Assembly: GCA_951406725.2 (NCBI GenBank)
Contig: OX597820.1
Coordinates: 103,106,001 to 103,170,000 of the forward strand
Direction of reading: 5' to 3'
Source: Octopus vulgaris
Lineage: Eukaryota
Length of the DNA: 64,000 nucleotides
Shown: one piece after another, positions 28,561 to 31,329 of the stretch
How the letters are laid out: each line of letters begins with the position of its first letter
Numbering within the stretch: the stretch's first letter is position 1
Notes under the pieces: generated by a model
Told to the model about the DNA's origin: nothing
What the model saw: only the letters and a program-made list of their open reading frames with translations
Database searches by the model: none
Translations under genes and position numbers: made by a program

Positions 28561-29339
28561 GGAAGGATGGGCTTCCTTCAGTTTCGATCTACCAAACCCA
28601 CTCACAAGGCTTTGGTTGGCCTGAGACTATAGTAAAGACACGTGCCCAAGATGCCACGCAGTGAAACTGAACCCGGAACGATGTGGTTGAGAGGAAAGCT
28701 TTTTACCACACAACCACGCATATTTTAAAATAGTAAACTATCTATAAATCGTAAATATATATATATACAAATTGTATCGTTAAGATATGTATGTATATAC
28801 GTGTGTGAGTGTATGTGTAAAATAAATAAATAGTAAATACAATTTATTCTGTGTTTATATATATATATATAACCTGATATATACATATTTATATACACAC
28901 ACAGATAGCTAGATATAAATATGTATATATCAAGTTATGTGAATATGTATACACACACACACACACACACACACACACATATATATATATATATATATAT
29001 ATATATATATATATGTGTGTGTGTGTGTGTGTGTATATATATATATATATATATATATAATTAATTAATAAGGGTGAGAGAATTAGATACTAATTTAATA
29101 GTATATCTATTCTACACCAAGTGGCCTAGTGCTCCGAGAAACCTGGATTATTATAATATTTTATAATATATTATAATATTTTTACAAAATAAATATAAGA
29201 GAGTGGTCACTATATGGCTCACTCTAGCACCAGTTAATCCAAAAGGTTTCAACCACAAAAATACATGCTTCCCATGAAAGTTAGTACGATTGTTAGCTCA
29301 CACGGACAGGGCAAATAAAAAATAACAAAATACAGATTA

Positions 29340-29422
29340 TTTTGGGACAATTGTTTCGCTATTAATGAATTAAATGTAATTTTACTTACAATTAAAATCC
29401 ACTTGTAGCTCTTCAGCCAAAA
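29340..29422 (-). ncRNA. Type I hammerhead ribozyme
   Basis: Minus strand: UUUUGG-CUGAAGA-GCUA...UAGC-GAAA-CAAUUG-UC^-CCAAAA. 6-bp stem I, intact core, palindromic minimal stem III; predicted cut between 29346 and 29345. Confidence 0.85.
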
Positions 29423-29874
29423 CTATCCGGATGAAATCCACTCAATCACACGCCAGATTTTACCATAACGATAAATACGCGTGTGGTTCAATTGATTACA
29501 TCCGACGTTATAATTCAAATGCCCCAACTAACAGCGCGCCAAACTTTCACGGAAAACAAATACAGCATTTAGAAATAAATGCAGCATAATTATAATTAAT
29601 TAATAAGGGTGAGAGAATTAGATACTAATTTAATAGTATATCTATTCTACACCAAGTGGCCTAGTGCTCCGAGAAACCTGGATTATTATAATATTTTATA
29701 ATATATTATAATATTTTTACAAAATAAATATAAGAGAGTGGTCACTATATGGCTCACTCTAGCACCAGTTAATCCAAAAGGTTTCAACCACAAAAATACA
29801 TGCTTCCCATGAAAGTTAGTACGATTGTTAGCTCACACGGACAGGGCAAATAAAAAATAACAAAATACAGATTA

Positions 29875-29957
29875 TTTTGGGACAATTGTTTCGCTATTAA
29901 TGAATTAAATGTAATTTTACTTACAATTAAAATCCACTTGTAGCTCTTCAGCCAAAA
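29875..29957 (-). ncRNA. Type I hammerhead ribozyme (second copy)
   Basis: Identical to 29340-29422, offset by 535 bp. Confidence 0.85.
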
Positions 29958-31329
29958 CTATCCGGATGAAATCCACTCAATCACACGCCAGATTTTACCA
30001 TAACGATAAATACGCGTGTGGTTCAATTGATTACATCCGACGTTATAATTCAAATGCCCCAACTAACAGCGCGCCAAACTTTCACGGAAAACAAATACAG
30101 CATTTAGAAATAAATGCAGCATAATTATAATTAATTAATAAGGGTGAGAGAATTAGATACTAATTTAATAGTATATCTATTCTACACCAAGTGGCCTAGT
30201 GCTCCGAGAAACCTGGATTATTATAATATTTTATAATATATTATAATATTTTTACAAAATAAATATAAGAGAGTGGTCACTATATGGCTCACTCTAGCAC
30301 CAGTTAATCCAAAAGGTTTCAACCACAAAAATACATGCTTCCCATGAAAGTTAGTACGATTGTTAGCTCACACGGACAGGGCAAATAAAAAATAACAAAA
30401 TACAGATTATTTTGGGACAATTGTGGTTACTGATGATGTTGACTTGTTCTTCTTTTCGGATTATGACTGCTGTTGCTTAGTGAGTGTGATTGACTCAGTG
30501 CACAGCCTTTCCTCACTTTAAAAAAAATCTTCTTGCACAGGCATTGCACGATAACAATATTGGTTAAGCTTCGTGCAATGGCCATACTCGATAACGAAGG
30601 GGCAGCCACCATGTATGTATGTATCTATCTATGCATGCATGTATGTATTGTATAGTAAATACATATATTAGCCATGCAATTCAATTTTGTACTAGATTTA
30701 GATTAAGATGTAAATGGTGAGAAATGGTTATTTTTTAAGAAGCGGAGTGGTACAGGAGGGGAAGAAGAATTCATTCTTATTTAAAATAATAATGCATGTA
30801 CTTTAAATATAAGTAAATCTAGTCTGAAATCGAAGCTATATGTAATTTTAGAAAGAAAAATAAAACACAATGAATTAATTCATCGTTAGCAAAAGCGAAG
30901 TAATTAAGATTTAGTATTCGATACCGATACAATTTAAAATAGACCGAAAGATTTTTACAACGGCATCCTATCGATATTACTCTAGATATTTTTATACGAA
31001 AATAGAGACGCAAAAATAGCCTCATTGGGCTCCAAACATTCTATTGATATGAGTAAACAACAATGATTAGCTCAGAGGAACAGCAATTGTTGCGTTTCGA
31101 TTAAGCCCACTGCCCACGGCTCGAACTTACTGAAATATACAAACGAGCCAATGAAAGTATCACTGCAGAGTTGACCAAACTCCTAAAAGTGACAACAAAT
31201 CCTCCACCCACCTCCTATCATACCCAAGTCTAAAATAGTACTTAAAAAGTAATAACTTGTGATACTTGTCAGGATGCATTTTATGATAGTTTTGCTCCTT
31301 AACAACGGACCTTGAACTAAATAATAGTT

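Follow-up and report, generated by a model that had tools for sequence, protein, structure and literature searches.

The window analysed here, 64,000 nucleotides of Octopus vulgaris DNA, contains on its minus strand a 1369-bp array of tandem units with a period of 535 bp (Table 1). When the array is compared with itself at this period, 29056-29889 and 29591-30424 agree in all 834 bases, which bears out the reading of about 2.56 identical 535-bp units given in an earlier note on this DNA, and no further copies of the unit were found elsewhere in the 64-kb window. Tandem Repeats Finder, with a longest period of 500, missed the 535-bp array. Folded as a circle, the 535-nt monomer is predicted to reach -149 kcal/mol (z = -6.1 against 40 shuffles), and the longest ATG-initiated ORF on this predicted circle spans 19 aa on the ribozyme strand and 52 aa on the opposite strand. 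Unit positions, abbreviated u, are counted from the first base after the predicted cut.

Table 1. Features of the array and its surroundings (window coordinates)
Feature	Position	Strand	Remarks
Retrozyme array	29056..30424	-	2.56 identical 535-bp units; period-535 identity 834/834
Array RNA-sense ends	3′ (putatively primed) end 29056; truncated 5′ end 30424	-
Cut-to-cut monomer	29346..29880	-	535 nt, 32% GC
Complete type I hammerhead 1	29334..29428	-	core from 29416; predicted cut 29346/29345
Complete type I hammerhead 2	29869..29963	-	predicted cut 29881/29880
Third hammerhead remnant	30404..30424	-	retains only the stem III palindrome, the cut site (30416/30415) and the stem I 3′ arm
End site A	29056..29085	-	unit position 290 (u290) after the cut; internal copies at 29591 and 30126
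End site B	29184..29205	-	unit positions ~153-162; 130 nt from A
(TA)n microsatellite target	28979..29055	.	inner (GT)n run
3′ stub of abundant unrelated repeat, (ATGT)n tail	30423..30604	+	adjoins array 5′ end
Decayed Hydra-type GIY-YIG piece	27988-28312		795 nt from array, beyond a microsatellite
DKG-type fragment	18782-19261		in the window

Each complete hammerhead motif comprises stem I, CUGAAGA, stem II, GAAA, the palindromic ACAAUUGU and GUC. Stem I pairs UUUUGG with CCAAAA and could extend to 12 bp with one mismatch, whereas stem II (GCUA/UAGC) closes a 44-nt insert that itself forms a hairpin. The minus-strand motif folds with z = -3.29, a value equalled by none of 200 shuffles; the plus strand gives no good fold (z = -0.81). 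At the Rfam gathering threshold the window hammerheads return no hits, probably because stem II is long. Elsewhere in the genome, the core pattern with another base after the cut has 145 matches, compared with 8 for a control, and 12 of the 20 related-hammerhead loci that were fetched (10 distinct places) show 65-75% identity over much of the unit. These older relatives contain the same closed unit, about 493 nt long. Across 15 sequences (the window, three family members and 11 relatives), stems I and II are 93.8% paired, compared with 29-40% in slid controls, and double-sided stem changes number 30, compared with 10.1 ± 2.9 in shuffles, statistics that ignore kinship among the 15 sequences. 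Because the relatives were selected by the core motif, core conservation among them is circular. In these alignments, compensatory changes preserve stems I and II across about 30% divergence. The earlier reading of two full minus-strand type I hammerheads is confirmed. Within the family, the core columns are nearly invariant over approximately 240-260 segments, the free position N7 being variable, and one core change, U4C, occurs at four loci (18 of 242 segments).

At its RNA-sense 3′ end, the array is joined at site A to a (TA)n microsatellite, as had been seen for its left end, and site B is unused as an end in this copy; we infer that A is an RT start site and B a second one. The other end of the array is joined, via a 2-nt GT overlap, to the 3′ stub of an unrelated repeat (632 genomic candidates; 40 scored, at 96-100%). 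This stub occupies the place where a site-B arm or (TA)n is usual, and the window copy is a one-armed A insert. The coordinates confirm that the right end lies 9 nt short of the third cut site, as the earlier note states; this stop is a 5′ truncation of variable position, adjoining another repeat. Of about 121 arm ends, 8 lie 6-18 nt upstream of a cut site, with about 4.7 expected in 21 nt, and none lies at the cut itself; we rejected the 9-nt stop as a special feature, it being one among many variable 5′ ends. The Penelope RT and GIY-YIG fragments reported to lie nearby are present, but they are unrelated old insertions that are not joined to the array, and no similarity to the Hydra ORF was found for the DKG-type fragment in the window.

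A dispersed family at (TA)n microsatellites

Searches of the octopus's own genome (2.8 Gb, 227 contigs) returned 2,134 exact matches to a 22-mer spanning the cut site; (TA)n is joined exactly to site A at 800 places and to site B at 474, and the reversed-pattern control gave none in each case. The family consists of at least 800 dispersed insertions at (TA)n and is young and non-coding. From the roughly 1,000 loci of the whole family, 80 were read in detail: 40 comprising the window and 39 other best whole-unit matches, 32 that complete the set of hammerhead loci within the initial 96.6 Mb of contig C1, and 8 further loci chosen for their A end. A run of (TA)4 or longer is found at one end in all 80 loci and at both ends in 67, and among the first 40 loci the flanks near the junction were alike in 8 of 3,160 pairs, at 74-92% identity and differing offsets. 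In none of the 80 loci is a PLE ORF joined to the array (flanks of at least 853 nt were examined); PLE-protein matches occur in seven of them, each 703-2,473 nt away from the array, and no LTR-internal-LTR layout was seen in the 80. By eye, repeat-like flank pairs appear at L069, L129 and L139, where the flanks are microsatellites. The earlier note had distinguished dispersed multimers from an assembly duplication and from copies that are all pLTRs of coding Penelope elements. Many of the other loci are multimers with as many as 12 full units in one arm, which excludes an assembly duplication as the source of the tandem form, and it is very improbable that the copies are all pLTRs, no ORF being joined in any of the 80 arrays; its retrozyme reading is supported on both counts.

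The RNA-sense 3′ ends of the inserts lie at fixed sites, A or B, and only the 5′ ends are scattered, at odds with the permuted ends that had been expected. Forty-one of the 80 loci are two-armed, with inverted arms and both 3′ ends facing outward, and the 40 that could be classed (L062 is the sole two-armed locus that could not) each pair an arm ending at A with an arm ending at B, an outcome with p = 9e-13 if the ends were chosen freely. On contig C1, an independent count from the junction lists alone (71 for A and 35 for B) gave 17 facing pairs, all of them A-B and none A-A or B-B. One-armed loci number about 20 at A and about 19 at B, counts that are approximate because BLAST misses second arms that are very short and because L100, a compound, was read as one-armed. 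Classic L1 twin priming with non-overlapping arms was rejected, as the arms overlap in the template. The inserts thus display an inverted 5′-truncated partner arm, a tail at one end and a microsatellite target, all features of PLE-type insertion, and PLE insertions are described as carrying a ‘tail’ at one end only (PMC8557442). This end footprint of the Penelope ‘tail’ type suggests the identity of the mobiliser.

Candidate helper elements and the copied template

Young coding PLEs in the same genome also have (TA)n as their target, and their ends lie about 55-65 and 210-218 nt beyond the PLE hammerhead; in all eight two-armed loci with both ends readable, the two arms take one of these sites each. 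Their hammerheads are of the same design as that of the retrozyme, stem II being long and stem III an 8-nt palindrome, and an 899-aa open frame is found in about 20 of the 150 PLE matches listed. The Hydra motifs (defined in section 11 of PMC8557442) RW(L/K), DKT, CxxC and CxH are present, with CxCX5C additionally in the family L245-L253, and it is on these motifs that the Hydra clade call rests, because Pfam returned no families for the Hydra ORFs. We sought a coding element homologous to the unit in five protein-based sets, including long-ORF loci, and with one related-hammerhead pattern, and found none in the resulting 134 PLE-selected loci (L071-L099, L160-L204, L215-L254 and the 20 related-hammerhead loci L140-L159). 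The few matches to the unit were separate retrozyme inserts or the window's own locus. Among the candidates rejected, the unit matches at L099 and L174 are separate retrozyme inserts ending in (TA)n, that at L162 is located past the 3′ side of the ORF, and a weak AT-rich match between an old relative and L245 (E about 1e-4, 60-63%) was not accepted. With no homologous coding element found, the PLE partner is deduced through its footprint only. The (TA)n target and the two-site end rule are common to the retrozyme and the coding Hydra-clade PLEs, which supports the Penelope-type mobilisation that the earlier note had envisaged. We are highly confident that the repeat is non-autonomous and PLE-mobilised, and Hydra-clade PLEs likely supply its endonuclease and RT.

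The units themselves bear on what was copied. Across 154 full units, divergence is 0.30% within arms, 0.14% across arms and 2.05% between loci; as cross-arm divergence is far below that between loci, both arms derive from one template haplotype. No arm ends at the cut site in 261 copies, and in 245 of these a 21-nt match runs across it. Cleaved linear monomers were rejected as templates on the first of these counts, as was template jumping with added bases because the junction is exact, and once cleaved monomers and sloppy jumps are excluded a circle or an uncut multimer is left. Both arms exceed one unit in 14 of 40 inserts. Sixty-two distinct alleles are locus-fixed, and most loci have their subfamily variants fixed in every unit of either arm, which calls for repeated single-unit passage and re-multimerisation. 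Among 32 multi-unit loci, just 7 have all their units identical to the letter, and 13 loci carry variants in at least two but not all units. At L065 the same variant is confined to unit 1 of both arms, and at L057 two A>G changes alternate, occupying units 1 and 3; these patterns require a multimeric template or later DNA shuffling.

One rival account retains the same family and the PLE enzymes, and takes the template to be an uncut linear multimer, with the hammerhead incidental to copying and array length kept by DNA duplication. It would accommodate the same-ordinal variants in both arms (L065, L056 and in part L038) and the block-like patterns within arrays L060, L063 and L107, and under the A+B rule one bound B-A module would suffice, with no circle required. 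Unprocessed RNA is also reported as the main in vitro substrate of an anole PLE, uncleaved RNA being used or preferred and hammerhead mutants still being inserted (PMC11167929). One of nine Xenopus retrozyme dimers is reported to have been cleaved in vitro (bioRxiv 10.64898/2026.07.22.740005). An uncut multimer fits poorly, however, with the 62 locus-fixed alleles, with a cross-arm divergence so far below that between loci, with arms that reach 6.8 kb (the longest) although all copies are 5′-truncated, and with hammerhead stems kept by compensatory changes over about 30% divergence, and we consider it unlikely. We lean instead towards circles as a regular template, with multimers and later DNA shuffling probably operating alongside them; some inserts are copied from templates longer than one unit.

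Nucleotide changes on the ribozyme strand

A tree in which each of 55 loci is represented by one natural unit yields 32 A>G and 12 T>C changes, read on the ribozyme strand (p = 3e-5), a per-base ratio of 3.7, and the A>G/T>C ratio is 2.5 when distinct minor alleles are counted once. Three segments more than 8% diverged and the AT-rich palindrome at unit columns 160-199 were excluded, and the tree and its control were also made without columns 488-489. In that control, coding PLE copies that are older and not age-matched, the ratio is 0.8. The A>G changes recur at the same sites on different backgrounds, five times at u335 and four times at u78. A 3′ G is enriched at A>G sites (8/21 vs 21/136), and a 5′ G shows no depletion at the 21 genomic A>G sites (6/21 vs 23/136). 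Strictly private fixed variants are without skew, with three A>G and five T>C.

Plus-strand T>C and A>G places number 23 and 7, 14 and 4, 12 and 3, and 2 and 1 in contigs from four runs that are only guessed to be RNA, represent other individuals or organisms, have low depths and come with no DNA-run control for comparison. Array T>C places in those contigs number at least 19, and 12 of the 19 listed are G in at most one of 220-262 genomic units; these 12 cluster in stem I and at u420-423, and none of them has a 5′ G. Their resemblance to ADAR editing of the hammerhead strand amounts to a hint.

The skew, one variant subset lacking it, suggests ADAR-edited templates, and we think ADAR somewhat the better bet as its cause. 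The skew would otherwise reflect an asymmetry of transcription-coupled DNA repair or an RT error bias, an explanation with which the unskewed private variants and the undepleted 5′ G agree; an excess of A>G is known for the non-transcribed strand in mammals. We find this explanation doubtful, given that the coding PLE copies, for which the same kind of RT was likely responsible, show no such excess, that wobble errors by the RT would be expected to favour T>C and G>A in sense, and that A>G recurs at u335 and u78 on different backgrounds.

Class, proposed mechanism and relation to known systems

Two further readings concern the nature of the units. They could be pseudo-LTRs or 3′ stumps of an unsampled coding PLE, given that hammerhead design, target and end rule are the same in coding Hydra elements, which can also form head-to-tail trimers (L169, period 3625), and that 80 of about 1,000 loci were examined. 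We regard this as very improbable, because an ORF is joined in 0 of 80 arrays, because the retrozyme unit closes on itself after A while coding elements reach their ORF about 50-60 nt past the A site, and because the older relatives, at 65-75% identity, preserve a closed unit of the same kind. An ordinary satellite or assembly duplication with a chance hammerhead-like motif could be invoked for the 100% identical window units and the blank Rfam result, but is effectively refuted by the 800 identical junctions at dispersed places, the covariation in the stems, the haplotypes shared between arms and the strictness of the A+B rule. We are confident in the reading that the array is one insert of a young non-coding hammerhead family with a footprint like that of Hydra-clade PLEs, the likely source of its enzymes.

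In the mechanism that we propose, arrays would be transcribed on the hammerhead strand, and the tandem hammerheads would release 535-nt monomers, probably acting as dimers via the palindromic stem III, which a host ligase could circularise by analogy with coral, mussel and axolotl retrozymes. A PLE protein, the candidate enzyme here and likely dimeric, would bind the B-A module of one RNA and nick both (TA)n strands, each of which would prime cDNA on about 4-5 nt of TA microhomology, one at A and one at B, in keeping with the observed end rule. Both RTs would then pass upstream through the cut or ligation site, often for several units, presumably with strand displacement and with either a circle or an uncut multimer as template. 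Joining of the two cDNAs at their variable far ends would give a two-armed insert with its 3′ ends outward, and if one of the arms is lost or very small, the product would be one-armed, as in the window. Templates would likely be A-to-I edited at times, leading to a build-up of A>G on the ribozyme strand. A fuller version, in which a Hydra-PLE dimer primes both (TA)n strands on one ribozyme circle at two fixed sites with both RTs rolling, ADAR editing of that circle is a main mutational force and the arrays record edited molecules (for instance the alternating A>G units at L057, as if from an edited dimer circle), is tentative, and we give it a little less than an even chance.

On the sequence features compared, the array family is a non-autonomous non-LTR retrozyme, a known class. 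Like the metazoan non-LTR retrozymes (Cervera and de la Pena 2020, PMC7229834), for which PLEs have been proposed as mobilisers, the octopus family has dispersed non-coding tandem units with one type I hammerhead each, a GC content below 50% (32% here) and a strongly self-paired predicted circle (z = -6.1), and its weak palindromic stem III is like that of the axolotl retrozyme described there. The unit is larger, at 535 nt compared with about 170-400 nt, and stem II is extended by the 44-nt insert, unlike in those retrozymes. The fixed two-site ends, inverted two-armed inserts, (TA)n targeting and A>G skew of the octopus family do not appear in the parts of PMC7229834 drawn on here; cleavage and circles are demonstrated for the retrozymes of that study and predicted for the octopus family. 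Vertebrate retrozymes have been described as PLE derivatives (Li, Clavereau, Pollet 2026, bioRxiv 10.64898/2026.07.22.740005), with a range of 51-972 bp that includes 535, mostly short arrays and PLE co-occurrence, as here. Their link to PLEs consists of pLTR homology and co-distribution, with no mollusc in the parts of the preprint drawn on here, whereas no homologous pLTR was found for the octopus family, which has an insertion footprint in common with PLEs.

The Hydra-clade PLEs, for example Hydra-1_Obim (Craig et al. 2021, PMC8557442), have the same (TA)n target, a preference given in the supplement of that paper, along with a canonical hammerhead, an inverted 5′-truncated partner copy and a ‘tail’ at one end. 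They encode RT and GIY-YIG, whereas the octopus 535-nt unit is non-coding, and the tail measures 130 nt in the octopus retrozyme, about 155 nt in the Hydra elements of its own genome and 30-40 bp in PMC8557442. Poseidon PAc of Anolis (Frangieh et al. 2024, PMC11167929) likewise has two internal RT starts, with both strands of an AT-rich target nicked and extended by a predicted dimer, as in the octopus scheme. The PAc sites are described as adjacent, non-homologous to the target and alike for the two strands, whereas the octopus sites are 130 nt apart, TA-like and used one per arm.

A literature search of titles and abstracts returned no cephalopod retrozyme family and no retrozyme editing, a result on which the supplements of PMC7229834 and of the 2026 preprint may bear. 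Open questions in the parts of PMC7229834, PMC8557442 and PMC11167929 drawn on here include the copying enzyme of animal retrozymes, the use of circles, and the tandem and inverted inserts of PLEs. As the class is already known, the surprise is moderate; the insertion footprint is unusually clear. For bench work the octopus family makes sharp predictions: reverse transcription should start at two mapped sites separated by 130 nt, one for each strand, on a (TA)n target and from a template defined at 535 nt, and the genome itself contains intact ORFs as candidate helpers. Should ADAR be responsible for the A>G skew, RNA editing would have been written back into inherited DNA across a mobile-element lineage.

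Older relatives of the retrozyme and changes within arrays

Older relatives of the retrozyme, the non-coding hammerhead repeat of the window, lie at loci L142-L159 with 65-75% identity and a unit of about 493 nt, and they end at the same A and B sites, the two fixed 3′ end sites (RNA sense) that join (TA)n. In L154/L155, one arm finishes about 30 nt beyond site A. Further hammerhead repeat families, unrelated and with palindromic stem III, were seen at L172 (period about 379), L179, and L140, L141, L150, L151 and L153.

Among 20 multi-unit arrays, changes confined to one unit were skewed on the RNA (hammerhead) strand, with G>A at 15 vs C>T at 1 (p = 0.001), a bias that may reflect wobble errors of the reverse transcriptase, deamination of single-stranded cDNA, or an effect of the assembly strand.

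Penelope-like fragments and other repeats in the window

The window carries two fragments with features of Penelope-like elements (PLEs) alongside other repeats. In a protein search of the genome, the closest relatives of the GIY-YIG fragment were also mostly decayed. The second fragment has a DKG motif, typical of a PLE clade other than Hydra, and showed neither a Pfam match nor likeness to the Hydra ORF. The (ATGT)n-ended stub, which may come from a SINE or a LINE, is deep in three of the four runs aligned to the window, runs only guessed to be RNA.

Features of the window outside the retrozyme array
Feature	Position	Strand	Details
Zinc-knuckle ORF1-like frame	8592-9290		ordinary repeat
Minisatellite	11638-13132		73-bp unit, 20.5 copies; GGAA/TTCC words abundant
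PLE-type fragment	18782-19261	-	DKG motif
Mariner HTH fragment	23784-24284		ordinary repeat
Hydra-type GIY-YIG fragment, decayed	27988-28312	-	CxCX5C linker present; one stop, one frameshift
Abundant repeat, 3′ stub ending in (ATGT)n	30423-30604	+	632 candidates; copies 96-98% identical
SINE-like tandem, 184-bp	37980-38395		ordinary repeat
LINE endonuclease/RT remnant	50867-53105		ordinary repeat

Coding Hydra families

Loci L160, L161, L169 and L170 belong to one Hydra-type PLE family that is young and intact and whose ORF spans 899 aa (for example at G000:C1:119516500-119526400, genome and contig), and at L169 three hammerheads stand in a head-to-tail array with a period of 3625. At L052/L070, a retrozyme abuts a Hydra element within one (TA)n tract, and each of the two stops at its own short-end site. 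Another Hydra family (L165, L166) has an ORF of 778 aa and a hammerhead core reading CCGAAGA, a U4C change common to this family and four retrozyme loci. The second young family (L245-L253) contains CxCX5C, and its member L251 has RWK; the 3′ UTR is very long, at about 2.4 kb, and the hammerhead has ACAGCUGU as stem III. We consider this family a candidate helper for the retrozyme.
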